Source of the DNA: Podospora anserina
Lineage: Eukaryota
Reading direction: 5' to 3'
Assembly (NCBI GenBank): GCA_017654855.1
Contig: CM030337.1
Location: forward strand, 3,968,001 to 4,032,000
Length of the DNA stretch: 64,000 bases
The first letter of the stretch is position 1. The number at the start of each line of letters is the position of its first letter. Both the position numbers and the translations under genes were made by a program. Positions 2,221 to 44,211 of this stretch are shown here, one piece after another. The notes beneath the pieces were generated by a model. That model was not told the DNA's origin. It worked only from the letters and a program-made list of their open reading frames with translations, and did not search any database.

Positions 2221-3010
2221 CTATTTGCAGGTGCGCCAGGCGATGTTGACCTGCTGGGTGAAGGCAACAGTGGCGTCGTCGTTGGTGATCTCGCCGATGG
2301 CAGTGCGGTTGCTGCTGGTGAGGGCGATGCGGTTGTTGACGTTGAGGATGCCGTTGGCGCCGCAGGGCGAGTAGATGTAACTGGCGGTGGGGATGCGGTC
2401 GGCCTTGGTGTAGACCTGGCCAGACTCCCAGATGCCGCCGCCTGTGATGGAGGTCTGGGTGGTGGTGGTGGCGCTGGCGTCCTGGCTGAAGTAGTAGGTG
2501 CTGTAAAAGGTGCCGGTGACGCCCTTCTCGAGCTGAGCGTAGCCGTGGTAGGTGGACTCGACCACGGCGAACTGGAAGCCGCTGGGGTACTGTGTAGGGA
2601 GTGCGTGTTAGCCTTGACCTTTGTCTCATTGACATTCACAGGAATGGGGGCATGCACAGGCTCTACCTTTAGGGAGAGATGGAGCTGGCAGTTCTTGGTC
2701 TTAGCAGTGGGGTCATAGCCGGGGCCGATGTAGGTCTGGAAGCGGTCGAAGCCGAAGGTGACAACCTGTTGATGGGTTAGCATCTGCTGTCCTGCTTTTC
2801 TGTCTTGCCGCCCTGCTTCTAGCTTACAGTCTTATCGGGAGAGATGGAGGTGGAAACGGAGCCCTGGGGGCAGCCGTTACCAGAGAAGCTGGCCTTGTCG
2901 ATCTGGATCTGCTTCGGGTCGGGGGCGTTGGCCCAGCCGTCGTTTCCGACGACCTGAGCAACGGGGCTGGCGGCAGCGAGAGCGGGGAGGAGGAAAGCGA
3001 CGGCCTTCAT
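2221..3010 (-). CDS. Secreted protein, DUF4360 family (3 exons: 3010-2828, 2765-2667, 2589-2221)
   Basis: Signal peptide [16 protein letters not shown]. Motifs [41 protein letters not shown] introns with CTAAC branch points join three ORF-track fragments in frame. Confidence 0.85.
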
Positions 3011-6000
3011 TTTGATGATTGGGTTGCTGAAAAAGCTGGTTGGAAACCGAAGATGATGATGGTGCGGGCGGTGATCGGAAGATCTGAAGGCTGGAGGATG
3101 CTGAAGGCTTGAAGGCTGATGAGTTGATGAGGAAAAGAGGTCGATATCGTCGAGGAAGGGCTCGATACTTATACTCGTCTCTCGGGCTCGAACGTCCCTC
3201 TTTCTCGTGATGACTTCACATTATCCGAGGAACAAACTCCATATTCCCGGCCGCGGACGGGAAAGACGTTTCTCGTTCGAGCGAGACCCGCTTGACATCG
3301 TCGGTTTGGTGTTGTTAATTTGGTCCCCAGATTGTGCAGCCGTCTCCCAGACCCCAGCTTCTTCGCGGTTCTCCGAGTCCTTCTCCCTGTTTGGAACTTG
3401 GAGTAGTTTGCATCCGGATGTAAACATTGTCTGTCGATGGCGTTCGAGGCCAGTGTGGGTCTTCGTTTCCGAGGTTCTCGCACGCCTCTAGCACCACAGT
3501 CGCAGCAGCCAAATTTACGGATGAAGTGAGGATAAATGAACTACAAATTAAGACGGGACGTCGAGCTCTTATGGCTCGCTTCACCAAGGTACATGACCCT
3601 TACCAGAGCCGCACGAAGACCCAGTCCGATGCGTTCGCGTTACTCGATTTGCTGACGCTTCTATCTACTCTAGATGTCATTGTGGATATTCCAGTAACCA
3701 TAATTCTTTTTATAGAAGTCACTCTCCAGATTTCGACAAACTCGACACTGCGAACGTCCAATTCAGGCCGTCGCTGGCAATATCGGCTTAACATGCGGTG
3801 AGGACCGTGTCACATTGCGACATGCACTCGAGAAACTGGCCACTGACAACCGGGAATCATGGCTGTCTTGATGTTGTAGACATGTTGTTCTCCAAGTCAC
3901 CCCTAGTCTACGAAGCTCAGATCCACGATGATGCAACAAGCAAATTCTGTTGCACTCCCCGATCAGCAAGACAATCTGAAGACAAAACAATGGACAAATC
4001 CCGAGAACCGCGACCCGGGATACTGGCAAGGGCCACACCTGTTGAGATCTCCCACTCCGCTGGCAGCGCTGATCTTGTAACACGACGAGGCGCACCACTG
4101 GAAACTTGCACCAGAAGCCAGTGCTACCCAACAGACATGACACTTGTCGCCATTGCTATTTTTGTGGCATGTTCAGGGGTCATTAATTAAGCTTAATTGA
4201 GGGACCCACCCTTTGTTCCCGGACGGGGCCATCGCGGACCTGGGTCGTGGCGTGGTGGTTGCATCTCGCTGCTATCGGGGATAGCGACTCGAGAGACGTT
4301 GACGTTGCGTCGGTGGTCAGCTGACCGCCACATTGCCCGCCAGACGGAGTCCTCTGGCCATGCACCGCGAAGCTCCATCATGGCTGCCAACACACACACA
4401 CGCCGTCGGTGAAGCACAGCCCGGAGGCATTTCACCATCGATCAAAAGGACAGACCAAATACGGTTGTTCAATCCAGCCACTACTATAGGGTATTTGCTC
4501 GACCCGCCAATGCCGTTCAACCGTGCCATGGACCAACACTAGCGTTGCCGGAGTGCCCCTAGGGTACCAAACTACCCCCTTGTTCCGCCACACAGGATGA
4601 GGAACCAGATGCTCCGAATTTTTACGATTGGCCCAGCAAGGCGAAGACTTCTTGCTTTAGCTACACGCCTGCACTAACATCGCTGTTATTCTCATGATCC
4701 CGTTCCCCACATCGTCCCATCTCGAATCAAGAAGTTCCTCACTTGTCAAATATCAGTTCCCGGCTATTTCTTCGCTTGTGGTCCAGGAAGAGCAACCCGA
4801 GCGGGTGGCAAAAGGGCATTTGTCGAGCTTTCACAGTAAACGGGTTGAGAAAATAGAACCGTGCAGTTTGGTCCGGTCAAGGAGCTCTGTCTGCGATGGC
4901 TTTGGGTCGGTCCATCCTCAACTTACCCTCCGGGCAATTTCCTCCCGAGAGGGATGATACAGAGTCAATGTGAAGGGTTGACTGACAGTAACAGACCATG
5001 GGGCCGCATAACTCTGTGCTACCTATCTACAATCTACCTTGAATGCGATGGTCCAGAAAAAGCGACCCACATTCCCGCAGTTCGGCGGCTTGCCAGGAAC
5101 CCGGGATGCCCCCCAGCCTTCCCATGCAGTGCAAGGCTGGACAGGCTGAAAGGATACCAACCGATTGACGCAACCCCTGGGCTGTTCCACGGTTAATGGC
5201 CACATGTAGACCACCCTTTGCACGAGTCGGTTTCATTCGGCCCTGCGAGGTTACCGTGCACCAGCAGTTTTTTGAACACTCTATTTGGGCAAAACCCAAC
5301 CTGATCATGGCCGCCAACCATGCAAGACACACGAGCTTGTCTTTTATGAATGTGCTCAAAGGACCCCAGTATAAAATCGTATCCACATTGCTGACTGTCA
5401 CTTTGCAATAGCGTGTAGATTGGGCTTTTATATCAAGGTCACTTTGCTGCTCCCCATCTCCCTGTTGTACTGTCAAGCGAGTACAGGAATAGTAATAGTG
5501 TATATGAGGGTTCGTGCCAGGTACCACGAGGGAACCTGGATTCTGCTCGTAACTGGGGATATCTATGGTGCAGGACATGCTGCAGGTAATATCGAGGTTC
5601 TCATCAGTCTGACCCCCGATGTGCAGGTACTGGACTCTGGACGACGTCTCATTAACACCCCCGATGCAATTGACCAGCTCCCTTTCTGGCCGAAAGAAGA
5701 AACGGAAGATGACTGGCTACGACTGCTGCCTTGATCAAGCAATACAGATATTGATCTCTGTCTGGATTCCAGATGTCGACCCCAACTTTCCTGTGCCAGA
5801 TGCCGCTATCTTTAGCTCAGGGTAGCATCGAGATGTAGCTTTGTGTATAGTAAACAATAGACATATGAGAAGAATTTTTGATGCCAGCAACCACCGAGTG
5901 AACCGTCGAGGTATCAGCCTGAGTTGCGAGAGGAGGCGCAGTTCAAAATATGGTCTGATGAAGGGTCCTCGTTGTTGTGTTGACAGGTTGTTTTGGTGGC

Positions 6001-6778
6001 TGGGCCGGAGCGGAGGAGATAGGCATCACGGCCGCCGAGGTCCAGCACTACCGCGCCAACTACCACGGGCCGCATCTCACACAAAGTACCAATACGGCGG
6101 TGGTCCCGGGATAGTAAGAGAGAAGGAGGGGAATGTCACCCTGTGGGGGGGATGATCGACCACGCCTTTCTCCGTCCCGTCCGGCTTGCCTGCCATTGGA
6201 GGTGAACGTGGAAGAGGTGAGTGACACAGGTGGGGTGTCCGTGTAAATGTTTATCCAAGGGAGAAAGGAAATCGAGGGCGTCTGTTCTGGTGATGGGCCG
6301 CCTCCCGGACCTTGGTGGTTGACGCCGGGATGGTGTTGAGCCCTGTCTACCTATCTTCTACAGTCATCATCACTCACCAATAGTCGAGGCCTACAATGCT
6401 TTCTCAACGAGAAACAGCAAACCTCAAATGGTTCGCCCCATCCAAGCCGATCGAATCTTCCGGGCGCTCACCAAGTAGAAGGCGGCCAACATCATGACTC
6501 GGAATGAAGACGTCACACCAGACCACATCACAACACTGAAACCAACAACATGAAATAGTCTATTCTCCAAGCAAATTCTACACTCCTTCTCATAACACAC
6601 AAACACAAAAAGTGTACACTAATCCCAACAACACCATGCCTGCTCAAACGCTTTACTTCCCTCCCCATCACAAGCCAAACGCTACAAGCATGCTACAAGC
6701 ACTAATATCTTTTCACAAAAATTACAGATCCCGTTCTCCTCTGCATCATCACATCATATCCTCATACCTGTTCTCCAT

Positions 6779-8306
6779 CTACTGCCCCTCAACTTGCTTC
6801 AACAACCCCTCCAAATTGATGCTCTTAGGCCTCTCAATGGGCAGACCCAACGCCCGATCCCAGATCAGCTGCGCCAACGGGCCCAATCCTCTGCTGACGC
6901 CAAAAGTAGCGGTATAGTACAGCGTCTCGTGGAAGCCGTAGTGGTGGAACAGCACACCAGAGCTAGAGTCCACATTGGGGTAGGGGTTCTTGGTCTTTCC
7001 ATGCTTCTTCAGCACCTCAGGCGCAATGCGGCTGTTCTTCTCCACAAGCTGGAAGACTGGGTCGGCGGCGATCTCGGGGCGGGCAGCAGCGTAGTCCATC
7101 AGGGCCTCGAAGCGTGGGTCCGGCTTACGGAGCACGGCGTGGCCGTAACCAGGCACGACACGGCCGCTGTTGAGGGTGGACCAGAGGTAGTCGTGGATGT
7201 CGTCTTCGGTGTAGTTAGCGGGGATGGCCTCCTTCATCTGGATGATCCAGCGGAGGACTTCCTGGGCGGCGAGGCCGTGGAGGGGGCCGGCGAGACCCTG
7301 GAGACCGGCGCTGTAGCTAAGAAAGGGGTCGCTCAGTGCGCTACCAACCAGGTGGGTGGTATGGGCCGAAACGTTACCGCCTTCGTGGTCACCGTGGAGG
7401 GCGAGGTAGAGACGGAGGAGGTCTTGGAAGTTCTCGTTCTCCTTGCCGCCCTTGCCGAGCATGGCGGCGAAGTTGTAGGACCAATCTTGCTCGAGGTCGA
7501 TCTCGGCGGGAAGAGCACCGCCACCCTTGTAGGAGTTTTGGTAGATCTTGGCCGCGATAGTGGGCAATTTGGCGAGAAGAGAGATGCAGTCGTCAAAGGT
7601 AGGCTCCCAGTAATCGGCCTTGTTGAGGCCCTCCTCGTACGCCTTGGCAAACTTGGATGTGTAGTTCAAGGCGGAAACAGCAATGGCAAATTGGGTCATT
7701 GGGTGGAGGTCCTTGGGGAAGTTGTCAAGCAGCTTGGTGACAAAGTCTGGGAGCTGGCCTTGCTCGGCGAGCTCACGCGAGAACTGGCGGGTCTGGTTGA
7801 CAGAGGGCACTTTGCCAGTAAGCAAAAGCCAGAACATGGCCTCGGGAAGCATCTCGGTGCCGGTCTTGCCCTTGGGCAGCTCCTTTTGGCAGTCCTTGAT
7901 GGTGCGGCCGTGGAAGCGAATACCCTCGTTGGCATCGAGCACGGAACCCTCCCATACCATGGCCTTGAGGCCGCGCATACCACCAATTGTGTTCTCAACC
8001 TTGACCTCGCCAATGACCTTGGAGCCGTGGGCCTTGACCTTCTTGAACAGCTCGCGCTTGGCAGGGATCACCTCCTTGAGCGTTGTCTTGAGGTCGGGTT
8101 CGGCGGTAGAGTATGTTCGTCGTGTAATTGGGGCATATCTAACTGGCGTGGCAGCAAGAGGCTGCAGAAATGTCAGCAAACATGAAGTCTAGAGAGATGA
8201 GACGAACAGCTACGTGCTGCGTGCTGTGCAGTTCATGGTGGAGCAGCATTTGACTTACACGCAGAGCGCCCAATGCGCGGGGAGCCTTTCGGAAGTTCAA
8301 AGCCAT
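6779..8306 (-). CDS. mcsA: 2-methylcitrate synthase, mitochondrial (exons 8306-8259, 8161-6779)
   Basis: Citrate-synthase motifs GDHEGGNVSAHT, GLAGPLHGLA, VPGYGHAVLRKPDPR, YPNVDSSSG. Arg-rich presequence MALNFRKAPRALGALR. Head-to-head with a methylisocitrate lyase. Confidence 0.92.
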
Positions 8307-9272
8307 GTCTGATGGTATCCAAAGTCGAGTGTAGATGATCTGAAAATGTTTCTTAATTCCGAGTTCCTCAGAGCCTCATATGAGAGAAGCTGACCTCCTC
8401 TGGTCCTTTATCCCATGCCAGCCGAGGGATGTGGAGAGGTTTGCCCTTGCAGGGAAGTGGCCGGGGCGCGCTCGACCGTGAATGCGGGGTACTTGGTGTA
8501 TCCTTGCCGCTTTCTTTTGGAGCACCCTTGAAGGCTGGAGCTTCCCCGGATTTCTTGGTGATGTAATGGGGGCCGTGGGGGTGGTGTGCAGTAGAGATAT
8601 CACAGATGCTATGGCAGCGCAAAAAAAACGTCTCAAGTTCCAAACTTCTACAAGACAGCCTCAAAATCATTTTCCAGTGGTTTGGACACGATCAACGTCC
8701 GCCGCTTCTTTTACATGTGCACCAGCTTCCTATTCTGGCGCCAACGCTAAAACCCCGCCATGTCACTTTCACAGCGCTTCAACCGAGGGAAGCCGCTCTC
8801 TCTGCCCCGCACTCTGGGCGTTGCAGCCCCGGACAAACGGTGCAGGGTAATGCCGGTTGAGCGATTGACCAATCAGAAGCTCGCTAAATCCCTCGGCAAC
8901 GCTCCACACCACTGAAATGTCGCCGTCGACCAGAACCTCCATCACGCCGAACCGTGACCCGGACAACTTGAAGCTCCTGCTCTTTAACCATAGCCATACC
9001 CGGTAGCACCTGCACGCCATCGCTCCCGAATTCCACAAAGAAATAACGCCGGCCGATCCGTTTCCACCTTTACTCAGCAGTTGGCCCGTAGCTGGTCAGC
9101 TAGCTCGACCGTACTCGACCCCGACATCGGCAGCATCGCAGAGCAGACTGTGTGTCCAAGCCATATCTTTTTAACACGGCATCTTCCTTTTGTATGTCTT
9201 AGCTGGCCTGGCTTTGGATACCCGGAGAAACTCAACACACCTACCTTTGTTTCTTGGCTTACCACACCTCCG
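8307..9272. promoter_or_regulatory. Bidirectional promoter of mcsA/mclA with three CCTCGG (FarA/FarB-type) motifs
   Basis: CCGAGG at 8422 and 8783, CCTCGG at 8891, CCAAT near 8869, plus several SYGGRG (CreA-like) sites. Function inferred. Confidence 0.5.
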
Positions 9273-11099
9273 ATGCTGCGCACCATTCTCCCCAGCGTCC
9301 CCCGGCGGACCCTGACTGCACGGCTAACCTCCGCCTTGTCTTCCGGATCAGCTAGGGCGCACGCCGTTCGCTCCCTATCTACAACTGCGGTCACCAGAAT
9401 GTCTTCTCTCCCACCAGCAAACCCACCACTGACCACGACGTCAGCTTTTGAGGCCTACCAGCTCTTGCCCGAGGCGCAAAAGGCCGGAGCGGCCGAAGAT
9501 GCCTTGTTCGAAGCTCAAGTCAAGGAGGTTGAAGCCTGGTGGGCTTCTTCCCGTTTTGAGGGCATCAAGCGCGACTGGACAGCCGCCGATGTCGTGAGCA
9601 AGCGCGGCTCCCTCCAGCAAAACTACCCCAGCTCCGTCATGGCGCGCAAGCTATGGAACCTCGTCCGTGAGCGCGAAGCTGCTGGCAAACCCATCCACAC
9701 ACTGGGCGCCATCGACCCTATCCAGATGACACAACAAGCGCCGCATCAGGAGGTCCTCTACATCTCTGGCTGGGCCTGCTCCTCGCTCTTGACGACCACC
9801 AACGAGGTTTCCCCTGACTTTGGCGACTACCCTTACAACACGGTTCCCAACCAGGTCCAGCGCCTGTTCAAGGCGCAAAGCATGCACGACCGCAAGGACT
9901 GGTTCCTGCGCTCCAAGATGAGCCCCGAGGAGCGCGCAAAGACCCCTTACACCGACTACCTCCGCCCCATCATTGCCGATGGCGATACCGGTCACGGTGG
10001 TTTGACCGCCGTCATGAAGCTGGCCAAGCTATTTGCTGAGAACGGCGCGGCGGCGGTGCACTTTGAGGACCAGATGCACGGCGGTAAGAAGTGCGGGCAT
10101 TTGGCTGGCAAGGTTCTCGTCCCAACGAGCGAGCACATCAACCGCCTCAAGGCTGCCCGGTTCCAGTGGGATGTCATGGGAACTGAAAACTTGGTGATCG
10201 CCCGTACCGACTCGGAGAGCGGCAAGCTTATTTCGTCATCTATTGACGTCCGTGATCACGAGTTCATCCTCGGTGTTGCGGACCCCTCTGTTGGGTCTCT
10301 TGCCGAAACGCTGGCTTCGATGGAAGCAAAGGGTGCCTCTGGTTCAGAGATTGACGCCTTTGAGGCCCAGTGGGTCAAGTCCACCAAGCTGGTCACCTTT
10401 GACGACGCTGCCGTTGCCCACTTTGAGAAGCATGGTGTGCCCCAGGAGAAAATTGCAGGGTACCAGTCTGCCGTCAAGGCTGACAGGGACATGGGCATTT
10501 CTGAGCGCCGCAAGCTTGCCTCGTCTATTACCCCTGATGCCCCTGTGTACTGGGACTGGGATGTCCCCCGCACCCGTGAGGGCTTCTACCACTTCCGCAA
10601 CGGCATGAACGCTGCTACCAAGCGTGCGTTGGCTTTTGGTCCCTATGCCGACCTTCTCTGGGTTGAGACTGGTGACCCGAATGTGCAGGTGGCTAAGGAT
10701 CTTGGTCAGGCTGTCAGGTCGGTCTACCCTGGCAAGGGGCTGGTGTATAACCTCAGCCCCTCGTTCAACTGGATGGCGCATGGGTTTACCCCAGAGACGC
10801 TCAGAAGCTTCATCTGGGATATTGCCAAGGAGGGGTTTGTCCTTCAGCTTGTCAGCTTGGCTGGTCTGCACAGCACCGCGACAATCAGCAATGAGCTGGC
10901 CAAGAAGTTCAAGGAGGATGGCATGGCTGCTTATGTGGAGCTTGTTCAGAGAAGGGAGAAGGAGTTGGGTGTTGATGTTTTGACACACCAAAAATGGAGC
11001 GGTGCTAGCTACGTTGATGCTGTGTTGGGCCATATTCAGAGTGGCAGCTCAGGGAGTAAGAGTATGGGTGAGGGGAATACGGAGGGGCAGTTTGAGTAG
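9273..11099 (+). CDS. mclA: 2-methylisocitrate lyase, mitochondrial (ICL2-type)
   Basis: Isocitrate-lyase motifs [49 protein letters not shown]. Mitochondrial presequence from the ATG at 9273 ([12 protein letters not shown]). Adjacent to mcsA. Confidence 0.9.
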
Positions 11100-11311
11100 G
11101 ATAGGTGACTGTTAATAAAAGGGGTGAAGAGGTTGGAGGACCGTGTATGTACAGGAGGCATTTGCAAGCATATTGCATAAGGAGGGCGTTTTTGGCTATG
11201 GCATCTTTCGACTTCAATCTCAACATGATACCAACTAAACACAAAATCAAGTCATCACATTGTATTGGTACATCAGATCATCTATCATGTATCATCAAAG
11301 CCTGCAGAATC

Positions 11312-12209
11312 TTACAAGCTGTCCTTGGAGGCGTTGTTCACGGGCGCCGGGGCAGCCGGGCCCTCGGGGGTGACATACGCCTTGGTCATACCACCATCCA
11401 CCACAAAGTCATGGCCGTTGACAAAGCTGCTGTCATCGCTGGCCAAGAACAGAACCGCCTGCGCCTGCTCAATGGCCTCCCCGAATCTGCCAGTAGGGAA
11501 GTGCACCTCTCTCCTGTGTCTTTTGGCCTTGTCATCGCCCAACCAATCCTGCAGCAAAGGGGTGTTCAACGGCGCAGGGCACAAGCTGTTGAATCGATAC
11601 CCCTCCCTGGCATGCACAATCGCCAGCTCCCTCGTCATGGCCAACACAGCACCCTTGCTAGCGGTGTAAGCCAACTGCGGTGTAGCCGACCCGACAAGCG
11701 CAACAACAGACGCAGTGTTGATGATCGACCCCTTGGTCTTGTTGTGTCTCCGCAACGAAAGGACGGCGTGCTTGCAACCAAACCAGACGCCCTTGACGTT
11801 GATGTTTTGCGTCAGATCCCAGATGTCCTCGGGGGTGTTGACCGCGTCGTCGTCGCGGGCGTGCATGATGCCAGCATTGTTGAACATGACGTCGACGCCG
11901 CCCCAGGCGTCGAGGGACTCGACGGCGGCTTGGACGGCAGACTCCTTGGAGACGTCGCAGATGGTGGTTTCGATCTTGCCGGCGGCGGGGACGAGCTGTT
12001 TGACTTTTGCTTGGGCGCGGGAGAGGGCTTCTTCGGATATGTCGGCCATGAGGACGTTGGCGCCTTCGCGGGCGAAGAGGATGGTTGTTTCGAGGCCGAT
12101 GCCACTAGGCGACGTTAGCCTTGGGGATAACGGTAGGGTGGGGGGATTTAGAAGCCTACCCGGCGGCGCCGGTGACAATGGCGTTTTTACCAGCTAGACG
12201 ACCGGACAT
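11312..12209 (-). CDS. Short-chain dehydrogenase/reductase (exons 12209-12160, 12104-11312)
   Basis: Removing a 55-nt GT-AG intron gives MSGRLAGKNAIVTGAAGGIG (Rossmann motif). Also NNAGI, YTASK and DGG motifs. Confidence 0.92.
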
Positions 12210-13619
12210 TGTACCAAACTTCGAGTTGATCAAGTTGACTGTTTCTCTTCTGGTGGTGGTGGTGGTGTGTTGACGTCGTTGGAGGGGTAGTGGCCGGGGG
12301 GGTCTTGGTGATAAGACCGATAACACGGAGGGAAAGGACGGCGAAGGTTGAACTTGTCACAGTCACCCTCAAGAACAAATAAATACCCCAATCTCTCAGA
12401 GTATGTAGACGATGGAGCTTTGGAAGGATTTGAGGAGGCAGAAGAGCAAATATGGTGTTTGCTGATAGCAAAGCCAACACTTACCTACTACTTATCTCAC
12501 CTCTGGACCCATCACTGATACGGCCGACAGCTGCACCATGCCCCGCGTCCCTTGAGCATCCGAGAACGGCGCAAGCCAGCACCAGATGGGAAATCCAACC
12601 CCTTTCCCCCCCTGAGTGGATGGTTGGGATCCGGTCTATCAGATCCACTCGATTGAGCATCCCGAGTCTGGCCGCAGGACCTCGGGGGGCCCAGATGCCG
12701 ACGGACCTCCTCCGTATTGGCCTCAGTGGACAGTGGCAGGACGCGTGACCCTTCAGCAGACGCCCTTGAGGCCAACGGCCCAATAACTTAGACACATGCT
12801 CGCAGAATCGTGGGTCCGATAGCGGTGAGAAGCAAGCAAAACCGTCCTTACATCATTTCCAATGCGTGTCTCGCTACACCTGTCACCGCCATCCAAGAGA
12901 GGCGAGAGATGGGATGGAGGGAGTAAGAAGGAGGGGCTTGGCGTCACCGTGGGAGCTGCTGCGGGGTCGTTGCCCGTCTTGATGGAGCTCTAGCGATAAG
13001 GAGAGATGTAACATAGAGGGCGATTTGTCACCACGGAAGTCTCAAAAGTCTCCCAAGCGGATACACTACTTGGATAGGAAATCTCTCTCTAGTAGATCAG
13101 AGAGAAGAATTAGACAGTGAGAACTCTGTCATGAGTGTCAGGCTTGTCGAGGACCTCTTGAGCTGCCCCGCACTTTGCACGCCTGGCATGGCACGTGCAA
13201 GACCCCTCTTCGCCGTTCAGCCTGAAAGCTCCATGGCTGAAACCTATGACGCAGTGACCCGCAGCTGGACCAATTACAGGGCTCTGCTTGCCTTATCGGC
13301 ATCTTTCAGAGGTGTGACCAGGGCTTATCGGCCGAACCAACCCGCCAGTAGCTCCCCTCGGAACTCCCTATGACGATCGCAAAACAAGCTTCCCATCCCT
13401 TTCATTGCTTCACGATCCAAAAAGGAGGTCTGAGTTCGTCATCGGTTCAACCCGCTGCCGCTATCAGTGTAAGAACTCTTGCTGAACTCTTTTGAGCTCT
13501 TCACTGTGTTCAGGATTCTCTCAGAAGCCAACACCGCAATCTACAGCAAGCCACAAGACCAGGACCCCGCAACCCCTCCATTGATTATCGTGATATAGAG
13601 CTTTTCAACACCAGCAACC
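12210..13619. promoter_or_regulatory. Shared divergent promoter of SDR/GS-like genes with clustered GATA sites
   Basis: GATAAG/CTTATC at 12310, 12491, 12995, 13292 and 13324 (the last two as CTTATCGG direct repeats). CCTCGG at 12680 and 13356. Confidence 0.45.
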
Positions 13620-15215
13620 ATGGGCCAACAGGAGAAAGAACCAGAGATCACGGTGGAACAACTCCCAGACCTCCTTGCCAACGACAATGCTGTCAAGCTC
13701 GCCGGTGTCGATGTTGACGGCCAGCTCCGCGGCAAGCTCGTCTCCAAGAAGAAGTTCCTCTCGATCGCAAAGAGTGGCTTTGGCTTCTGCTCTGTCATCT
13801 TCGGCTGGGATATGCACGATATGACTTATGTGCGCGAGCTCAAGGTCAGCAACAAGGAGAATGGATACAGGGATATTATCGCAGTGCCGGACTTGCAGAG
13901 CTACAGGCGCATTCCATGGGAAGACAATGTGCCGTTTTTCCTGGTCAGCTTCTTTGATCCTGATACGAAGAATTCCGTTTCTGCGTGCCCGAGAGGTCTG
14001 GTCAAGGCGCAACTCGAGAAGTTCAAGACGATCAATGTTGGAGCCATGGCGGGAGGTATGTTGATATCTGCTGCGCCGGTGTTTTTGCAAGTAACAGTCA
14101 CTGATGTGTCGGGCGCGCAGCCGAGTACGAGTTCTACCAGTTCAAGAGCCCTTCCAACAACCAAAACGATAGCTTGACCTCTGGTACCGCGGCATTCTTG
14201 CAACAAAACCCGCCACATAGTCTACCCGCTCTGACTGAAGGCATGTTTGGTTACAGCTTGACGAGACCGGTCCACAACAGCGGGTACTACTACGACGTCT
14301 TTAACAGCTGTGAGGCTTTCAGGTGCAACATCGAGGGGTGGCATACCGAAAGTGGACCGGGAGTCTACGAAGCAGCGCTCGAGTTTGGTGAGGCAGCGCA
14401 GATGGCAGATCGCGCGAGTTTGTTCAAGTATGTGGTCAAGTCGGTCGCGACCAAGTACGACATCACCCCATGCTTCATGGCAAAACCCAAGCAAGGCCTG
14501 CCCGGAAACAGTGGGCACATGCATATTTCGCTCGTCAACCACCGCGGGGAAAATTTGCTGTTCCGTGGAGGAAAGGACGAGAAGGCTCAGTACTCAGACA
14601 TTGAGTCTCTGTCGGACTTGGGAAGACACTTTTTGGCTGGTATTCTGGAAGGTCTGCCAGATGTCATGCCCATGGTAGCGCCCACGATCAACAGTTACAA
14701 GCGGTTGGTGGAGAACTTTTGGGCTCCTGTCACGGTGTCATGGGGCCTTGAGCACAGAGCGGCTTCCATCCGGCTCATTGCGCCTCCTACCTGCAAGCCG
14801 GCTGCCACGAGATTCGAGATCCGGGTTCCTGGCGCAGACGCAAACCCATACTACGTCATGGCTGCCATGCTGGCACTCGGCTGGCGCGGTATCGAGAAGA
14901 AACTGGAGATTCCGTGCCCTCCGCTTGGAAAGGGCGAGGAAGTCGGCGGTGAGTCGGATAAGGGGGTGAGACTGGCCAAGAACCTCAAGGAGGCCAACGA
15001 CCGGTTCACTCGCACCGGCAGCATCGCGAGGGAGGTGTTTGGTGACGAGTTTGTGGACCACTTTGGTGGTACAAGAGAGCACGAGATAAGACTGTGGGAT
15101 GAGGCTGTTACTGATTGGTGAGTTTGGACTAACTCTGTCCCGAGCATCTGGTGCGCAGTGAGACAATTGCTGACCAAGATATAGGGAGATGAAGCGTTAT
15201 ATCGAGACTGTGTGA
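13620..15215 (+). CDS. Type I glutamine-synthetase-like protein, probable gamma-glutamyl-amine ligase (exons 13620-14055, 14121-15117, 15185-15215)
   Basis: D.DGQLRGK, AEYEF, HTESGPGVYE, FMAKP..GLPGNSGHMHISL, PTINSYKRL, SWGLEHRAASIR, RFEIRVPGADANPY, and C-terminal VTDWEMKRY after two introns are spliced. Confidence 0.9.
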
Positions 15216-15827: not shown

Positions 15828-17859
15828 ATGGCTCTCACAACAGCTTACTCCGGTGCGCCGGCCGGGAGGATGCCCTTTGACAACGCCTTCGGGTTTACCT
15901 TTAGCCAACCGTTCCAGCACGAAAGCGACTTCACTCCGGCAAACCACCGGGTGCCCAAGGTGAATGACGAGCAGCCTATTTTTGTGGACAACAAGTCTGG
16001 TATGTTATCGTCAGCTGATGTTGGCTTATATGCGCATAAATCTGCTGTGCGACTCTCTCTCTCAGCCAGTTGCTAGACTAACATGCTTCTCTTTGTGGTA
16101 CCTAGGTCGCGCATTAACCTACTCCCAAATCCGCGCCGATTCTCTTGCCTTGGCGTCCGGCCTGTTGAGCCTCCCGAATCTCGACCCGACCGAAATCAAG
16201 AAACTCCCTCCCACACCATCATGCCCCCAAGGCCCAGAGATCGCGCCGGTGGTGTTGATTCAACTACCGAATTGCCTCCCCTTTGCGCCTATTCTCCTGG
16301 GTACTTTTGCCTCGGGGTTCACGGCTACGCTTGTCTCGCCTGCCCTGACGGCGGATGAGGTTGCCTGGATTTTGCAAAATGCCAAACCGAGGGTCATCAT
16401 CACTGCGACGGCGTGCTTGGAGGCTATGAAGGCCGCTATTGGGAAGCAAGAAGGGGATCAGAGTTTCTGGAATGGGGTGCCAGTGTTTACCGTTGATGCT
16501 GTCAACGATACCTACCCTCTGGCGTTCTCGGGACAGTCAAATCCCCAAGATTGGAGACAACTCCTGCAAGCGAAAGGGAAGCCATCCGTCCAGCCAAATC
16601 AGCGGCTTAACGAGCAGCAAGCCAAAGCCCGGACGGCGGTTATCCTCTGGTCATCCGGCACATCAGGCAGATCAAAAGGTGTTCTCCTCTCCCACCACGC
16701 CCTCAACTTCGCCACCGCCTCCCTCTGGCACGACGCCGATTATTATCCTCCTAGCGGCCCGCAGCGCTGGCTGGGGTTTGCCCCGTTTTACCACGTCTTT
16801 GGCCTCTGCAATGTTTTCCTCTTGGGCATCGCCGCCGGGGCGAGGGTGTTTATCATGCAGGGGTTCAAACTCCCGGATATGCTCGAGGGGATAAAGAAGC
16901 GTCAGATCACGTACGTGCACATGTCGCCTCCTGTCGCGGTGATGCTGGCCAAGGCGGAGGTGGTGGAGGAGTATGCCAAGCGAGACCCAAAGACGGGGAA
17001 GAACGGGTTTAGCTCTGTTGTCGGGGCGGTGACGGGGGGTGCGCCGCTGGGGCATGAGGTGGTTGTGCAGGTGTACAAGAGGTGCGGGTTTAGGATTCGG
17101 TTGGGGTACGGGCTGAGCGAGACTTGCAGTACGGCGTTGCAGAGGGGGTTGGGGGAAAGGGAGATGGGGGAGCAGGCGGGGGATACGGGGTTGCCGCATT
17201 GGGGGGTGGAGGTCATGATTGCTAGCGGGGAGGGGTATGCGACCAAGGAAGGGGAGAAGACGCCGGCGGCGGGGGTAGATGTGGAGGGGGAGGTGTTGGT
17301 TAAGGCGCCCGGGTTGATGTCGGCGTATCTGCCGGTGGGGCTGTTTTCGGGGGCGAAGCCGGACATGTCGGTTACGAATGAGGCGCTCACGGCGGATGGG
17401 TGGTTCAGGACGGGCGATGTCGGTGCCTTGTGCAAGGCGGGGAGGTTGAGGATCACGGATCGGTTGAAGGAGTTGATCAAGGTCAGGGCGTATCAGGTTG
17501 CGCCGGCTGAGCTGGAGGCGGTGCTCTGCAGTAGCGAGTCGGTCGGCGACGCTGGTGTGGTTGGTGTCTATGATGACGACGAGGCTACCGAGTGGCCTAG
17601 GGCTTTTGTCGTCCCTGCCGGCGGGAAGGAGAATAAGTCACGGGCTGATCTGGAGAAGCTGGCTGTTGAGCTGAAAGAGCTTGTGGAGAAGCGCACGGCC
17701 AAGTACAAGTGGCTGGTGGGTGGGATTGTGTTTATTGACCAGGTGCCCAAGAGTCCAAGCGGCAAGATTCTCAGAAGGCTGCTGAAGAGCGGTGCAGAAG
17801 GGACCAAGGGGGTCGAGATCAAGCTCTACGAGAAGAAAAAGAGGAGCGCCAAGTTGTAA
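15828..17859 (+). CDS. Peroxisomal acyl-CoA ligase (4-coumarate/phenylacetyl-CoA-ligase-like; intron 16000-16105)
   Basis: AMP-binding motif WSSGTSGRSKGV, GYGLSET, GWFRTGDVG, DRLKELIK, PKSPSGKILRR. C-terminal PTS1 KKKRSAKL. Confidence 0.9.
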
Positions 17860-17950: not shown

Positions 17951-19113
17951 TCATTCAGACTCGAAAATGACAGCACGCTTGGCCAACAGCGCTTCTTCTT
18001 CTGGGCGAATCAATTCGACCCGCAAATTCACAACTGCCCAGCGATAAGGCATAGGCCATTCCAGACGTTCATGATGTATATGTTGTCCAGTTCTCTTCCA
18101 AACTCTCCTGTTTACCATCCAGACCACACGTCTTATCAGGCTGTAAAGGTCGCTGGCACTAAGGAGAATATCGCGAGCCTGGTAGGGAAGTTGGCTTTTG
18201 TGCAGGCTCAAAGTTTCCTCAAGAACCCAATTAGCGACCTCTGTCCGACACTCATCGTTTGTGCAATACGATCCACGCGTTCCTCGAAGGGCATCGGGTG
18301 TCCTGAGGTCACGCTGCAGTGTTGTGTGATAAGAATCTAACAGCGTCTGGATTTTTGAGAGACGAACTTTGGCGATCCTCTCTGTGACACCTACCTTGTT
18401 AGCATGAAACTTTGCGCGACTGCCCTCGACTACGCACAGACAGGTGACTCGCCTTCCATATCAAGAGGACCAAAACGTAACTGGCGGAGCGGCGTCTTAT
18501 CCCCCTGGTCATTGTTGAATACCAGGACTCTGCTTTGCGGATCGATCCAGCAATGGTACACAATTTGAACAGTGTGAGCTCTGAAGACTCTCGAGAAGCC
18601 CAATTGCCAGGATAGAAATGCCTCAAACGGGCACCACCTGATGTCTTTGTAACCCTGCCACTTCACTTCCCCATTTCTTCCAAAGTCTACCAACGTGTGC
18701 TTCCACGGCGCGAGCAAGTGAGTCATTTGGTACTTGTCAGTGAGAAGCAGCAAGCCGTAGACCGCTTTCCTTGTCATGAGCTTCCTGGGGATCCTCCTGA
18801 CATGGAATTGGCAGTGGACGATTTGCAGGATGATTTCAAAGTCATCGGGGTCGTCCTCTGGCAGCGAAACCAGCCACTGCTCGCCTGCAGGTTTGGACTC
18901 TGCCGAAGGACCGAATAGCATTGCCTTGAATACTGGGGATGCACGGCGAAGGGCTGCCGGATCGACTCTGAAAGTGCGGGGGGTGGGGTCCGAGTCGGCT
19001 CCGACATGGAGAACAAGATCCCCGTCTGGATCGATTTCCTCGATGTGGAGTTTGTTGATGTCGACTGGCTTTGTGACATCAAGGCCTTCATCGGCGCTTT
19101 CCGGGGGCGACAT
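17951..19113 (-). CDS. BTB/POZ-domain protein A (apparently intact; GC-AG intron 18452-18391)
   Basis: IDPDGDLVLHVG, FRVDPAALRRASPVFKAMLFGP, LPEDDP, LLTDKY. Splicing joins the ORF to the 17951 stop in frame. Confidence 0.8.
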
Positions 19114-28843: not shown

Positions 28844-29383
28844 GTATCTATAATTTTTAATTATTTAAAAAACTATATATAATAAGGGTTAAATATTAAA
28901 GTTTAAAATTGTAGTTTAATTTAATTAATAGTTTTTAATAGTTTTAAAGTAAATAATGGAAGTAAAGATATTAAAAATATAGAGGGTCTTCAGAATATAT
29001 ATTTATTTATTTCCGGGTGGTCCTTATTTTAATAGCTTTAAGCTATTACTAAGACCTAATATATTTAGTTAATTAATAATATTTCTATAATAGCCGTATG
29101 CTACCTTCTTAATTGCCTCACTTCCAGCCACTGGTTCTCGATGTGTAGGTGGCTATTAGGCCGTGGTGTGACCGATTGGTTCGTTGACGTGTGATAATAA
29201 CGGGCAGCGAATGGGTCAGGTAGCACCAGGTTCTCTAATACGCCCTTTGGATGACATCTTCACGCTGTAACCGGGTAGCTTCGGCAAACAATGAACGATA
29301 AAACGTTCCGCACATCGGAGCTCCTGTCAACTGCTCCTCGCCCTGACACCACCGCTACCATCCCAGCTCTGAATCCCTCCACC

Positions 29384-30196
29384 ATGCCAGTCACCAGAAC
29401 AGCCGCCACCGCTTCCAAAGCAACGCTTTTCAAATCCCTTCACCACACCCCAACCAAACCTCTGCTCCTCGCCAACGCCTACGATGCCACCTCAGCCCGC
29501 ATCATCGCCTCTCTCCCGGGATGCAGAGCCCTAGCGACAGCCTCCTACGCACTGGCACTATCCATAGGCAAAGCCGATGAAACACTCACGTTGGAAGACA
29601 ACATCTCTCTTTGCCGTCCCATCGCTGCCGTGGCTCACGAGTTCAACCTACCATTGACAGTGGATATCCAAGATGGCTATGCCGGGCCAGGAGACCACGC
29701 AGAACTTAGATCTGTCATTGAAAAGGTGATACTCGAGCTTGGAGCTGTGGGTGTGAACCTGGAGGATACCTGGCATGAAAGCACCTCTGGGGATATGGTA
29801 CCGGAGGATGAGGCAATCGAGAGGATCAAGACTGTTATTAGGACGGCAAGAGAGCTTGGGGTGGTGGACTTTGTGGTGAATGCGAGGTCGGATACATTCT
29901 TGATGGGTGGGAGCTTGGACGAGTCGATTAGATGTGGGAAGAGGTATCTTGATGAGGGAGGGGCAGAGACGGTGTTTATTTTCTGGCCGAGGAACAAGGA
30001 GATGGAGAAGGCCGATGTTCAAAAGGTGATTGACGAGCTAGGGGGGAGGGTGAATGTGAGTTGCCGACTCGGGGGCCAGTTGACCACGGGGGAGCTGGGG
30101 GAGATGGGGGCGGCGAGGGTGAGTGTCGGGCCGCAGGTGTTTTTGGCTGCGGCAGAGGCGATCAAGAAGGCGGCGGGGGCGGTGTTTGAGAGTTGA
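29384..30196 (+). CDS. Isocitrate lyase/PEP mutase-family enzyme
   Basis: LANAYDATSARI, ATASYA, PLTVDIQDGY, GVNLED, VNARSD, GAARVSVGP. Intronless, and lacks the KKCGH loop. Confidence 0.88.
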   Translation: MPVTRTAATASKATLFKSLHHTPTKPLLLANAYDATSARIIASLPGCRALATASYALALSIGKADETLTLEDNISLCRPIAAVAHEFNLPLTVDIQDGYAGPGDHAELRSVIEKVILELGAVGVNLEDTWHESTSGDMVPEDEAIERIKTVIRTARELGVVDFVVNARSDTFLMGGSLDESIRCGKRYLDEGGAETVFIFWPRNKEMEKADVQKVIDELGGRVNVSCRLGGQLTTGELGEMGAARVSVGPQVFLAAAEAIKKAAGAVFES

Positions 30197-36197: not shown

Positions 36198-39100
36198 TCA
36201 CAACCTCCCCTTCCTCCTCCACCCCACCCTTCCCCCTGTTTTCCCCTTCAACACTTTCGGCACAACCCAAAGCCTACCATCCCCTCTATTCCGTCCTATC
36301 AAATCCCTCAAATATCCTCCCACCTCCCTGGGCAACCCCACCCGTTCCGCCTCTTGCAACCACCTCTCCGCCTCTACCTCTTGAAACCTCACTTTTCCCC
36401 CATGCTTTCTTGTCAAATAATCCCCCAACCGATCCAACCTCACGCAGTTCCCCTCGTCTCCGCAGTGGTTCCTGTATCTCACCCCCTTTGTCTCAACATC
36501 AAGGACATTACCAACAATATCCCTCGTCACCTCCTCCACACCAACAAACTGCAACCACCGCTCCACAGCCGGCATTTTGGGCACCGAGTGTAGTTTCTCA
36601 GAGTAGGAAAGAATATTATGCATTACATCCAACTCTGGAGCGTCCTCACCAAGGATGTAACAAGGTCTGTGGATCACCACTTGCAAACCGGACTCCCTGT
36701 GGGCATTGGCGAGGTATTGCTCAGAGGCGTACTTGGAGAGGATGTAGCCGTTTTCGGTTCTGTCAGGGGGTTGGGATAGCAAAAGTGGTTGTTCGTAGAG
36801 GTCGGTGGTGCCTAGTTGAGCTATGCCGGCGGTGGAGATGAAGTGGAATGTTGGAGGGGGGTGGTTTTGGAGGGAGAACTGGAGGGTGAGGTTGATGAGT
36901 GTTTTGGTTGAGAGGAGGTTTGGGGCGCGTAGGGAGGGGTAAGGGCGGAGGTGGTTGATTTCGGCGCCGTTGTGGAGGATTATGATCTTGGTTGTTGGGG
37001 TGGTGGGGGTGAAGATTTGGGAGGTGGTCGAGGGGGGGAGGCTGAGGTTTGGATCGCGGAGGTCGCCGGGGTAGATGGTTATTTTGGGGTGGGAGAGGAT
37101 ATTAGGGGGGGTTTTGGAGGGGTTTCGGACGGCGAGGCAGTGGATTTTGGTTATGAGGGGGTTGGGGAGGAGGCGGTTGAGGAGATGACGGCCGAGAAAA
37201 CCGGTGGCGCCGGTTAGGATGATTGTTATGTTTGTTACTGGGGGGGGGTAAGGTAGGCTGGTGATTTTCGTGAAGCTTTCTTTGAAGGCCACTTCGTCGT
37301 TCCAGTTGATGGTTTCAGGCTTTGGAAAGTTGACAGGTCTTGCGGCGGCGAGGCTAGCGTCTAGAAGTGTCGACATCTTGGCCAGGGTGTTTGCCTCGAA
37401 AAGCTTTGGCAGTGGAAGGAGGGCGCCAAAAGCTTTGTTGACCTCTCTCTGGATGCTCATCAACAACAACGAGTTGCCACCAACAAGAAAGAAGTCTGTG
37501 TCTGGCCCCATGGTCGTTCCGTCCACTAGGCCACCTAGGACCGAGGCCCAGATCTGCTTCAACTTGTCTTGGGTGTTGCTTTGTTGTTCAGTCTTTGCCG
37601 GCGGCTGAACTCGAAGAGCATGGGCAGTTCTTATGGGCACCACAGCAGCCATCTTGCCGAGTGTGCTGTCTTGAAACAGATTCGGTAATGGTATATTGTG
37701 ACCTGTTCGCTCTTTAATCTTGTTCTTGACATTGATGAGCAACAGCGAGTTGCCGCCAACAAGAAAGAAATCTGAGTTGGGGTCCAGTTGTTGGTCAGCG
37801 ACGAGTTCACCCAACACCTCTCTCCAAATCGCTTTCATCTCGGGAAGAAAAGAGCCAGCACCTGGTTCTCTACTGGCTAGCTTTGGAGTGGCAGTCTTAT
37901 GGCTCGTCATTAGGGGTGTGTTGTGCGATATTCTGGCCCCAGTTGACGGTCTGGCGGTACTTGGAACCGGTATTCTGCCCCCCTCTCTGGTGAGAGGCGC
38001 CCTCGAAAGGAATTTTCTATCCACCTTCCCATGATGACTCAAGGGCATAGCCGGTAATGCTACTACCACCGAGGGACGCATGTACTGCGGCAGTGTCGTA
38101 AGATCAGAGACAATCTCTTTTAGTCTCTTGTCAACACCTGGCCCGGTAGCACCTCCATATCTCCTTTGCACTTCGGATGACAATATCACATGCGAAACAA
38201 GGAACGCACTGGCAGCATCTTTGTCGTCTCCCCGATGACGAACATGACAGACAGCCTCCACAATATCACCCTTCCCGGCAAACACCATAGCTGCTTCAAC
38301 CTCTCGCAGCTCAAACCGCTGACCTCTCAGCTTGACCTGGGTGTCACCATTCATTCGTCCTAGAGTAACAAACACACCATCTTCACGCATGTATCCTCGG
38401 TCACCGCTCAAATGCGCTTGTGTCCACCCGTTAGCTACAGCCCGAGGGTTGGCAAGGGGGTCATTTGGAAACCGAGCAGCAGTAAGCTCAGGCTGCTTGA
38501 TGTACCCAGAAGCAACACCTGCTCCTCCAATGACGATCTGCCCTGGGACACCAGCTGGTAACGGGTGGTTGTTCTCATCCATGATGTAAACGCTGTAATT
38601 GGGCAGCACCTTCCCAATAGGAATGACAGGTGATAGATCGAGGTCCAGATAAGGCACTTCAAAAGCATGGGGAATAATGGTCTCTGCTGGGCCATATGCG
38701 TTGATGAAACGAAGGTCCGGTTTCTGCAAAGCTCTCAACAACTTGATTAGATTGGGACCGATGGCCTCGCCAGCAGAAATGTGGTGCTCCCAAGATGACT
38801 GGCGTAGCTTATCAAAGCCTACGCCATGTTGGAGCCATGACACGGCCTCTGAAGGAACCGCAAGAGTTAGAGTGATGCCTTGAGATACTATCAGGTCGGT
38901 TAGCGCCAATGGATCTCGACGAGCGTCTTTGCCTGCGACAAACACTGAGCCGCCTGTTGCAAGTCCAAGCAAAGTCTGCCACCAAGACACATCAAAGCTG
39001 AGAGCAATCTGCTGGAGGACCGTCTGTGGCTTCATCGGGAAGACGTGGAGGAAACCGTTGATGGTGTTGGTTATCATGCGATGGGGGAGAGAAATGCCTT

Positions 39101-42351: not shown

Positions 42352-44211
42352 ACGTGTATGATAAGCGAGCGACGCAGATAAGCGAGCGACGCACTCTCCA
42401 CCACAACGCGTCTCTTCAATATCTTCTACTACAATTCACCACCAACAACCATGGACGGCCCTTCAAAAGAAGCGAGACTTCTTCTTGCCCTCGAAGCTAT
42501 TCAAAATAAGGAGGATCTTAGTATCCGCACTGCAGCTAAGTTATATAACGTCCCAAAAGCAACCCTCCGCTATAGGCGTAATAGCCGACCAATACGACGC
42601 GATATTCCGGCCAACTCACGTAATTTAACGGATCTGGAGGAGAAGACGATAGTTCAGTACGTCCTTGAGCTATCTGCACGCGCTGTCCCACCTAGATTAA
42701 GTGGTGTGGAAGATATAGCCAACCAACTGCTACGCGTACGCGACGCGCCTCCTATTAGTAAACGCTGGGCCTATAACTTTATTAAACGCTAGCCACAGTT
42801 CCGTACGCGTTTTACGCGTAAATATAACTATTAGAGGGCTAAGTGCGAGGATTTAAAGGTTATTATTAAGTAGTTTATATTTATACGGAATACTAAAGCT
42901 AAATATAATATTATAAATAATAATATTTATAATTTCGACGAGATTAGGTTTATAATAAATATTATTTTGTAAGTATAATAATTATAACTTTAAATAGCTT
43001 TAATAAAGTAAAATTAGTTTAGTTTAATAACCGCGAATAAGTAATAGTAATTTAAAGAATTAATATTTTCGGTTAGACTATCCCGCCCTTTATTATTTTA
43101 ATTATATAATATTACTTTATTAATTAATATACTAAATATAATTTATTATTTATTTAATATATTATAATTACCGATAATAATTAAATTATTAATCCGGTAA
43201 ATTTAAATTAAATTAAATAGTTTAATTATTATATAATATCCCGTACGAAAAGTAAATACCGGTTATTAATTTTCGATAATTATAAAAATTACTATTTAAT
43301 TAAATTTAAATATTATTATTAATAAAATAATATTATTACGCTTTATATATCTCTATACTCCTCCCACTTCCTTTAATTATTTAATATTAATTATTTTAGG
43401 TTACTAAAATAAATATATAGCCGCTAGATTAAAAGCTTAATATATATATATATTAATTATATAAATAAACTCGAGTTTCTTTATACTTTCCGCGAAACTT
43501 TTTTTGCTTTTATAATAAAAAAAATATATAAAGTAGCTTTATAGGTACTAGCTTTATACTATACGATCTAAAGAAAGTACTTTTTAAATTAAATATAAAG
43601 CTTCGTACGCCTATACCCCTATCCTTAAAGCCGGGCACGGTACTACCTTAAATATTTTAAATATTATAAAACTTTCGAGAAACTAATTTATAATTAACGT
43701 TTATTAAAATTTATATTATTAATTATTAAAATAGTTTCCCGACTTCGATATTAGTTACTATAAACTAGCTTACTAAGGGTACGATAACTATAATATACCA
43801 GGTAGCCCTCCTTTAGTTAGAGAACGCTTCGTTCCGTAAGGCTAATAAAGTATTAAATAAATACCGGAGAGCTAAAAAAATACGTATACGGCTCGGAGGA
43901 TTACTTACTGTGCAAGATGTATAGGATCTACTGGACCAGAAGGCCGTGGGTGAGGAGGCAGTGGAAGAAATATAGCCGGATGGCGGTAGTGCTAGGGGGG
44001 CTCGTACGAAGGTTTAGTGCTGTAGTGTGTGCGGCAAGCCTGGCCATAATGCCCGCACTTGCCAGGAGGCTGCAGAAGGGTCTGATTTAGCTGTTTCTGA
44101 CGTAATTGTAGTTGGTTCTTAATGTTGTGGTCTAGCAATTGAGGATAGTTATAGTAAGGTGGTGGAGAGTGCGTCGCTCGCTTGTCTGCGTCGCTCGCTT
44201 ATTATGCACGT
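42352..44211 (+). mobile_element. Fot1/pogo-family DNA transposon, RIP-inactivated (second subfamily)
   Basis: TA TSDs at 42350-1 and 44212-3. TIRs ACGTG.AT.ATAAGCGAGCGACGCA.... Transposase start MDGPSKEARLLLAL at 42451 and CCHC knuckle near 44020-44060. Extreme TpA bias internally. Confidence 0.93.

Follow-up and report, generated by a model that had tools for sequence, protein, structure and literature searches.

A divergent gene pair was analyzed in a window of 64,000 nucleotides of the Podospora anserina genome (assembly GCA_017654855.1, contig CM030337.1, positions 3,968,001 to 4,032,000 of the forward strand). It consists of a gene for a short-chain dehydrogenase/reductase (SDR) on the minus strand (11312-12209) and a gene for a type-I glutamine synthetase (GS)-like ligase on the plus strand (13620-15215), the start codons of which are 1410 bp apart. 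The two genes are interpreted, with better than even confidence, as a catabolic pair under common regulation, the products of which are homologous to the enzymes of steps one and two in the bacterial GlnA4-type route of ethanolamine gamma-glutamylation. The ATP-using ligase of 487 aa would form gamma-glutamyl phosphate and then use an amino alcohol, not ammonium, as acceptor of the glutamyl group, and the bacterial homologues point to ethanolamine as the most likely one. The SDR would subsequently convert the resulting gamma-glutamyl amide to the aldehyde by oxidizing its free hydroxyl group. For the later steps, unlinked enzymes would convert the aldehyde to gamma-glutamylglycine, which would be hydrolyzed to glycine and glutamate, with flux presumably running in this catabolic direction; none of these enzymes is encoded in the window. 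Both genes would be read outward from one GATA-rich spacer, an arrangement fitting nitrogen control of the AreA/NIT2 type.

In Streptomyces coelicolor, GlnA4 is reported to make gamma-glutamylethanolamide and to be needed for growth on ethanolamine. The corresponding cluster SCO1610-1615 contains genes for an SDR (SCO1611), an aldehyde dehydrogenase (ALDH, SCO1612), GlnA4 (SCO1613) and an amidotransferase/amidohydrolase (SCO1615), and the SDR, ALDH and hydrolase steps are described there as predicted (PMC6529630). The initial annotation of the P. anserina locus had referred to this cluster, and its description agrees with the available text of that source. As to homology, pairing, an active site unlike that of GS and the GATA-rich region, the view is supported that the fungal pair is a eukaryotic counterpart of a known kind of bacterial pathway, widespread in fungi and mis-named in databases. 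If it is correct, the database name glutamine synthetase would be a misnomer for a protein distributed throughout the fungi, eukaryotes would use a gamma-glutamylation route so far known from bacteria alone, and a prokaryote-type catabolic pair would have been rebuilt around a eukaryotic bidirectional, nitrogen-regulated promoter. The interpretation bears on the fungal use of ethanolamine, an abundant membrane-lipid breakdown product in dung, soil, and plant and animal hosts. According to a paper from 2013, the GS proteins of ascomycetes are all of type II (PMC3829961).

Family affiliation of the two proteins

The SDR matches the Pfam family adh_short_C2 (1.1e-54) and contains the classical motifs TGAAGGIG (at 13), NNAG (at 92) and YTASK (at 163). 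NF004713 (PRK06057-like) is the best of 204 NCBIfam models with 257.2 bits (next 193.8), and the best PDB chain is 4wec_A with 204 bits (next 132). In classical SDRs, an Asp ending the second strand goes along with a preference for NAD. By this rule, the protein is probably NAD-dependent, as an Asp ends its second strand (DIS, residues 38-40).

For the classification of the SDR, the protein was aligned with representatives found by searching 1.84 billion proteins, and loci were obtained from a scan using one genome per prokaryote species. The best 80 bacterial loci encode SDRs with 47-60% identity to the fungal protein. A GS-like gene is located within 5 kb in 61 of these 80 loci, 60 times on the same strand, and an ALDH gene within 5 kb in 52; of the 58 loci flanked by 5 kb or more of sequence on each side, 48 have a GS-like gene within 5 kb. 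In a reciprocal search of five whole bacterial genomes, the best match of the fungal SDR was the GS-linked SDR in every case, with 218-278 bits against 101-148 bits for the runner-up, a margin of 91-174 bits among dozens of SDRs. A tree with eight more distantly related SDRs as root places the fungal sequences (17 rows, support 100) as a clade within the GS-linked bacterial family, in a sub-group (support 93) that also contains the Chloroflexota, Acidobacteriota and Bacteroidota type. An affiliation of the SDR to the bacterial GS-linked family, that of the glnA4 operons, is therefore supported, and the kinship proposed in the initial annotation is upheld by the nesting and the reciprocal matches. 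Given this nested position, fungi may have acquired the module from bacteria.

The ligase shares 485 of its 487 residues with P0001, which is recorded as 'Putative Glutamine synthetase [Podospora comata]'. Its catalytic exon (exon 2) matches Pfam Gln-synt_C (1.1e-74), and the best NCBIfam model is TIGR00653 (GlnA), in agreement with the earlier designation as type I-like and not type II; the score of 179.9 bits lies below the cut-off of 429. Eleven ligands of metal, ATP and glutamate are kept in 8/8 fungal rows (E129, E131, E212, E220, H269, H271, R321, R339, R344, E357 and R359 in the numbering of S. typhimurium), and the position of the flap residue Glu327 is occupied by Trp in all eight. 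Elsewhere, this position is Trp in eight and Phe in five of 13 SDR-linked bacterial rows, Tyr in PuuA and Glu in true GS. The ligase has Tyr in place of Ser53 and Pro in place of Asn264, where the linked bacterial proteins have Thr/Pro and Glu/Ala, respectively. An Asp aligns with Asp50, but the region carries an insertion; this insertion in exon 1, located before the Asp50 equivalent, is common to GlnA4-type proteins.

The N-terminal exon matches only the PDB entries 5dm3, 11zs and 8wwu at E <0.01 and no true GS. For full-length P0001, 5dm3_A (163.5 bits) and 11zs_A (153.8 bits) rank above every true GS (<=139.7 bits), and a Streptomyces GlnA4-type protein likewise has these two chains as its best matches (404 and 386 bits, next 190). 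In the five bacterial genomes, the best match of the fungal ligase was the SDR-linked paralogue in 5/5 cases, with 123-137 bits against 92-110 bits for the runner-up in four genomes and as the sole match in the fifth.

A first GS tree showed three clades meeting at one node and was uninformative on the placement of the ligase. The final tree comprised 51 rows with type-II GS as root and did not include IpuC, GmaS, PauA, NodGS or Dictyostelium GlnA2; Streptomyces paralogues were labelled by position following what we take to be the S. coelicolor gene order. Here, 16 fungal rows spanning chytrids, Mucoromycota, one basidiomycete and ascomycetes form a single clade, which is sister to 20 SDR-linked bacterial proteins, while E. 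coli GlnA, PuuA, other actinobacterial paralogues and a FluG-like protein are placed outside this joint group. Taken together, an affinity of the ligase to GlnA4 is suggested by several concordant, individually modest lines, the strongest argument being the conserved SDR partner. Two metagenome proteins (P0332 and P0333), in which a class-III aminotransferase (PF00202) is fused to a GS-like domain with 34-36% identity to the fungal ligase, appear as a separate long branch in the same tree.

The intact ligands and the database name would also suit an ordinary type-I GS for ammonium assimilation, next to which the SDR would be an unrelated neighbour. This explanation is extremely unlikely, given the Trp in place of Glu327, the low score against the GlnA model, a pairing with the SDR that is conserved in fungi and bacteria, and the approximately unbiased (AU) test, which rejected a grouping of the fungal proteins with true GS (p 0.002). 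Furthermore, MoGln3 of M. oryzae is described as a cytoplasmic protein with a single GS Pfam domain, the deletion of which leaves growth, conidiation and infection normal and does not cause glutamine auxotrophy, the latter resulting only from the deletion of MoGLN2 (PMC8229676). MoGln3 is probably the orthologue of the ligase. That the ligase is not a true GS is thus supported, both by the flap residue and by the AU test. The available text of a further paper contains no mention of the GLN3 enzyme gene (PMC4406744).

The same chemistry could act on a hydroxylated amine other than ethanolamine, for example serinol, an aminopropanol, or an amine derived from a sphingoid or from choline, the hydroxyl group of which would be oxidized by the SDR. 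In favour of such a substrate, the fungal ligases form a long-branched sister group and are not nested in the clade assigned to ethanolamine, and their pocket differs from that of the bacterial proteins at the Ser53 and Asn264 positions. In addition, all four GS isoforms of M. tuberculosis are reported to act on polyamine and monoamine substrates; a remark on eukaryote similarity in the same source concerns type-II GS and not the GlnA4-type family (PMC13740247). The fungal SDR, however, is nested among the SDRs of ethanolamine-type clusters at the identities given above, which speaks for a similar substrate in the second step. A different hydroxylated amine is therefore considered rather unlikely, and ethanolamine is kept as the preferred candidate.

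Conservation of the pair and its GATA-rich spacer in fungi

The linkage in other fungi was assessed by a scan of metagenome contigs, which yielded 80 loci in 56 distinct groups. Of these, 23 groups were informative, i.e., their sequence extended 3.5 kb or more upstream of the ligase gene. In 19 of the 23, an SDR orthologue (62-89% identity) is located divergently to the ligase gene, with a gap of ~0.65-2.8 kb between the tblastn matches of both genes. A looser count gives 31 of 35, a value biased by short contigs that were counted only if positive. In annotated genomes, the pair has consecutive locus tags in Cercophora (OQA88_5105/5106) and Madurella (MFIFM68171_02705/02706), and in at least ten further named species both genes are located on contigs of equal recorded size. 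Linkage of the two genes, suggested as a check in the initial annotation, is thus found in other fungi as well. The Cladonia-like locus L018 belongs to the group in which the orthologous SDR is located ~7 kb away; a different SDR gene (12169-12726, plus strand, ~30% identical) directly follows the ligase gene there, and a gene of the dienelactone hydrolase (DLH) family comes next.

The region between the two start codons of the P. anserina pair contains exactly five GATAAG sites (12310, 12491, 12995, 13292 and 13324), out of 28 in the whole window. In shuffled spacer sequences, which keep the dinucleotide content only approximately, 0.51 GATAAG sites were expected against the five observed, and 2.63 HGATAR motifs against 11. 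Each of 31 other fungal spacers of the same gene pair contains at least one GATAAG site, with totals of 67 GATAAG (14.9 expected) and 183 HGATAR motifs (88.3 expected). The initial count of at least five sites was therefore accurate, and GATA motifs are enriched in the spacer across fungi too. The predicted sites fit a nitrogen control by AreA/NIT2-type factors. The stretch 2836-12310 is free of GATAAG, and thus no site is present in the neighbouring divergent spacer of a citrate-synthase-family and an ICL-family gene. A second cluster of four sites within ~460 bp (18043-18501) is located beside open reading frames (ORFs) without a Pfam match.

Two of the five sites (13292-13297 and 13324-13329, minus strand) lie in the region 13099-13619, which is regarded as the bidirectional promoter core together with the 5′ untranslated region of the ligase gene on account of the GATAAG sites and the ligase contig starts (13113-13451). 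The other three (12310, 12491 and 12995) lie in a transcribed part of the spacer (12210-13098), the assignment of which to the minus strand follows from CT..AC joint ends only. Contigs covering 12296/12307-13061/13098 were found in three runs (X1, X4 and X8); their overlap with the SDR contig falls in a G-run (~12290-12305), at which the contigs break and which is 7 G longer in one run. In X5, a joint 12352/12485 skips 132 nt (12353-12484) with minus-strand splice ends. The SDR mRNA probably carries a long leader from which this optional intron is sometimes spliced. The extent of these contigs, which carry no strand, suggests that the true bidirectional promoter would be a short stretch of ~13100-13450. 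For the ORFs of the transcribed spacer, no conserved counterpart exists in the 80 fungal loci, and the spacer gave no blastn match. The contigs show transcription only.

The pair might instead make or remodel a gamma-glutamylated developmental metabolite, i.e., serve signalling or biosynthesis and not nitrogen scavenging. This idea draws on Aspergillus FluG, the GS-like half of which is proposed to act as a gamma-glutamyl ligase required for conidiation and has Trp as the flap residue (PMC6478659). FluG is thus a second fungal GSI-like candidate with the same flap residue; unlike the pair, it is a fusion of an amidohydrolase to a GS-like domain, has no SDR partner and is reported in that source to have a developmental role. 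The very strong conservation of the two proteins would suit such a role as well: the 120 best matches listed for each have identities of 82-97% (SDR) and 72-99% (ligase). On the other hand, the FluG-like protein P0336 (PF04909 and PF00120) shares only 31% identity with the ligase in an alignment covering 65% of the query, and it is placed outside the fungal and linked group. The spacer is GATA-rich, and conidiation is normal in the MoGLN3 deletion mutant mentioned above, which again speaks against it. A FluG-like function is considered quite improbable, and a catabolic function in nitrogen use is the preferred explanation.

Downstream steps and comparison with known systems

In 6 of the 23 informative fungal groups, an ALDH gene is located directly beside the pair; with the exception of L049, the nearest sequences are of the Alternaria type. 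The identity among these ALDHs is 63-82%, and their best NCBIfam model is succinic-semialdehyde dehydrogenase, with scores far under the cut-off. A hydrolase of the Peptidase_C26 family (PF07722), which is present in the bacterial loci L157 and L086, was found neither in the window nor in the fungal flanks scanned. A gene of the DLH family (PF01738) directly follows the ligase gene in five fungal groups (L050, L018, L055, L059 and L060), and at L055 the genes for ALDH, SDR, ligase and the DLH-family protein are all located together. The latter protein gave no PDB match at E <=0.001 and no NCBIfam match, and the Atlas contained only generic ascomycete DLH clusters. Of the partners for which the initial annotation suggested a synteny survey, an ALDH is thus linked in some groups, whereas no C26 hydrolase is linked in any fungal flank scanned. 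In gene models of Teloschistales (lichen fungi; P0305 and P0302), ligase and DLH-family protein are merged to 708-1272 aa, which represents either a fusion or an annotation merger.

It can tentatively be proposed that an old fungal module of ligase and SDR provides the main, so far unrecognized fungal route to ethanolamine nitrogen from phospholipid turnover under the control of a GATA factor, and that it recruited an unrelated ALDH and a DLH-type enzyme in place of the C26 amidohydrolase lineage by lineage. This wider proposal is possible, though on balance doubtful.

The Streptomyces locus L157 has the gene order C26 amidotransferase, amino-acid permease, GntR regulator, GS-like ligase, ALDH and SDR, and these gene families are those of the published glnA4 ethanolamine cluster (PMC6529630). 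The fungal pair resembles this type in having a ligase without the flap Glu beside an SDR of the same family, and the L157 copies are the reciprocal best matches. In contrast, the fungal genes are eukaryotic, contain introns and diverge from a GATA-rich spacer; a GntR regulator is absent, and the C26 hydrolase, permease and ALDH of the Streptomyces cluster have no equivalent in the window. The ligases also differ in the flap residue (Trp in fungi, Phe in Streptomyces) and at the Asn264 position (Pro and Glu, respectively), and their identity is only ~32-37%. The closest relatives of the SDR are encoded in the loci L081-L104 of Chloroflexota, Acidobacteriota, Bacteroidota and Planctomycetota (53-59% identity, full length). 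The operons of these loci have the order GS-like ligase, SDR, ALDH and share the flap Trp with the fungi, but their genes are co-directional and often accompanied by a permease or a tripartite ATP-independent periplasmic (TRAP) transporter.

By annotation alone, the pair can also be likened to the eto cluster of Phaeobacter MED193. This cluster is described as encoding an ethanolamine gamma-glutamylase, a gamma-glutamylethanolamide dehydrogenase, an aldehyde dehydrogenase and a gamma-glutamylglycine amidohydrolase, and it is listed in the ethanolamine proteomics table of the source (PMC10132767). The E. coli Puu pathway (PuuA-D) follows the same logic of protection, oxidation and release of a gamma-glutamyl amide with a ligase lacking Glu327, yet there a flavin oxidase acts on the amine, whereas here an SDR would act on an alcohol.

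Several results weigh against the assignment to an ethanolamine route. The score of the SDR is below the curated equivalog cut-off of NF004713 (404 bits), and the ligase is only 30-39% identical to bacterial GlnA4-type proteins. The join of the fungal and linked bacterial ligases has a support of only 87 in the Shimodaira-Hasegawa-like approximate likelihood ratio test (SH-aLRT), and the AU test did not reject a grouping of the fungi with E. coli PuuA (p-AU 0.24). For bacteria, too, the available texts base the assignment of the SDR step on prediction or proteomics (PMC6529630, PMC10132767). Three of the 23 informative fungal groups (two Chaetomium-like, one Cladonia-like) have no SDR in the ligase flank, and in one the SDR is located ~7 kb away in the other orientation. 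The linked fungal ALDHs share only 23-32% identity with the ALDH of the bacterial clusters, and the fungal enzyme was for this reason probably recruited independently of the latter. Among the ORFs of at least 110 aa in the window, there is no ALDH, C26 hydrolase or amine permease. GATA motifs alone do not prove binding. No enzyme assay or other characterization of a fungal member was found in the literature, with subscription-journal papers and supplements outside the search, and within the same limits the earlier statement that no biochemical work on fungi was known continues to apply. The nitrogen-regulated scheme of protection, oxidation and release put forward in the initial annotation is consequently supported in part, namely in the SDR family, the non-GS ligase, the pairing and the GATA enrichment, and not in the enzymes of the last steps, as far as the window is concerned; the substrate is predicted from the bacterial homologues and nitrogen control from motifs only.

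The AU result bears on a further alternative, according to which the ligase would gamma-glutamylate polyamines like PuuA or GlnA3 and the SDR would stand outside the pathway. The PuuA model NF045547 (GGputSyn) is the sole NCBIfam match of the N-terminal exon (23.1 bits) and thus offers some support, but the catalytic exon reaches only 132.2 bits against a cut-off of 650. A grouping with PuuA was not rejected by the test, but the best tree places PuuA outside the fungal and linked group; the comparison with GlnA4 and PuuA suggested at the outset separates the fungal ligases from true GS and joins them to the SDR-linked clade with moderate support. Moreover, the E. coli puu cluster uses the oxidase PuuB and contains no SDR, and the conserved SDR partner implies a hydroxyl group to be oxidized. 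A polyamine ligase is for these reasons very unlikely, and a GlnA4-type amino alcohol ligase is retained.

Gene models and wider neighbourhood

Both gene models were verified with contigs from four runs of four studies (X1, X4, X5 and X8). The recorded kind of these runs is a guess at RNA, and they were taken as RNA since their contigs are spliced. The SDR gene has two exons: exon 1 (12160-12209, 50 nt) contains the ATG at 12209 and most of the TGAAGGIG cofactor motif, and exon 2 (11312-12104), including the stop codon at 11312-11314, carries the adh_short_C2 match. The intron of 55 nt (12105-12159) is bounded by GT..AG on the minus strand, and its joint 12104/12160 (CT..AC) is present in 4/4 runs. 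The joined exons give a coding sequence (CDS) of 843 nt and a protein of 280 aa. The C-terminal string quoted in the initial annotation, GSATPQLAYTASKGAVLAMTREL...LCPAPLNTPLL...RREVHFPTGRF...FLASDDSSFVN, was recovered from the frame 11312-12193 of the minus strand. At position 12027, all four runs have A where the window has G, which changes codon 43 of the SDR from Ala to Val and is probably a strain difference.

The ligase is encoded on the plus strand by three exons. Exon 1 (13620-14055) covers the N-terminal beta-grasp-type domain according to PDB matches and alignment, exon 2 (14121-15117) the catalytic domain according to Pfam and the residue alignment, and exon 3 (15185-15215) the C-terminal end with the stop codon. 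The two introns comprise 65 nt (14056-14120) and 67 nt (15118-15184). Because the contigs of 4/4 runs span these two introns and that of the SDR gene exactly, both genes are transcribed and correctly modelled, including the divergent arrangement that had been read from the sequence alone.

An AMP-binding ligase gene of the acyl-CoA-ligase type (15964-17856, plus strand) was tried as a further member of the module and dropped, as only one fungal group (L004/L005) has a counterpart near the pair. AMP-binding genes are also located near some bacterial clusters, but their identity to this gene is only 23-33%, apart from one 51-residue fragment with 47%. The product of the P. anserina gene ends in AKL, which we take to be a possible peroxisomal signal.

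On the other side, the SDR gene is preceded by a divergent pair of a citrate-synthase-family gene (6782-8188, minus strand) and an ICL-family gene (8994-11096, plus strand), the latter with a long N-terminal extension. We assume that these two may be a methylcitrate-cycle pair. The block of citrate synthase, ICL, SDR and ligase genes recurs in five distinct fungal groups (L007, L009, L025, L056 and L076). In the Chaetomium-like loci L002 and L004, the citrate synthase gene directly adjoins the ligase gene, and the ICL and SDR genes are missing.

Further along the window, a single-module gene resembling those of nonribosomal peptide synthetases (36201-41525, minus strand) encodes condensation, adenylation, carrier and reductase domains. 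The same half contains a phosphoenolpyruvate (PEP)-mutase-family gene (29279-30193, plus strand) and a tyrosinase-domain gene (50371-51411, minus strand), and this stretch may represent a secondary-metabolite region. Transposase remnants (HTH_Tnp_Tc3_2 and DDE_3) and an ORF with an HTH_psq domain are located at 53893-55137 and 42382-42789, respectively, both on the plus strand.

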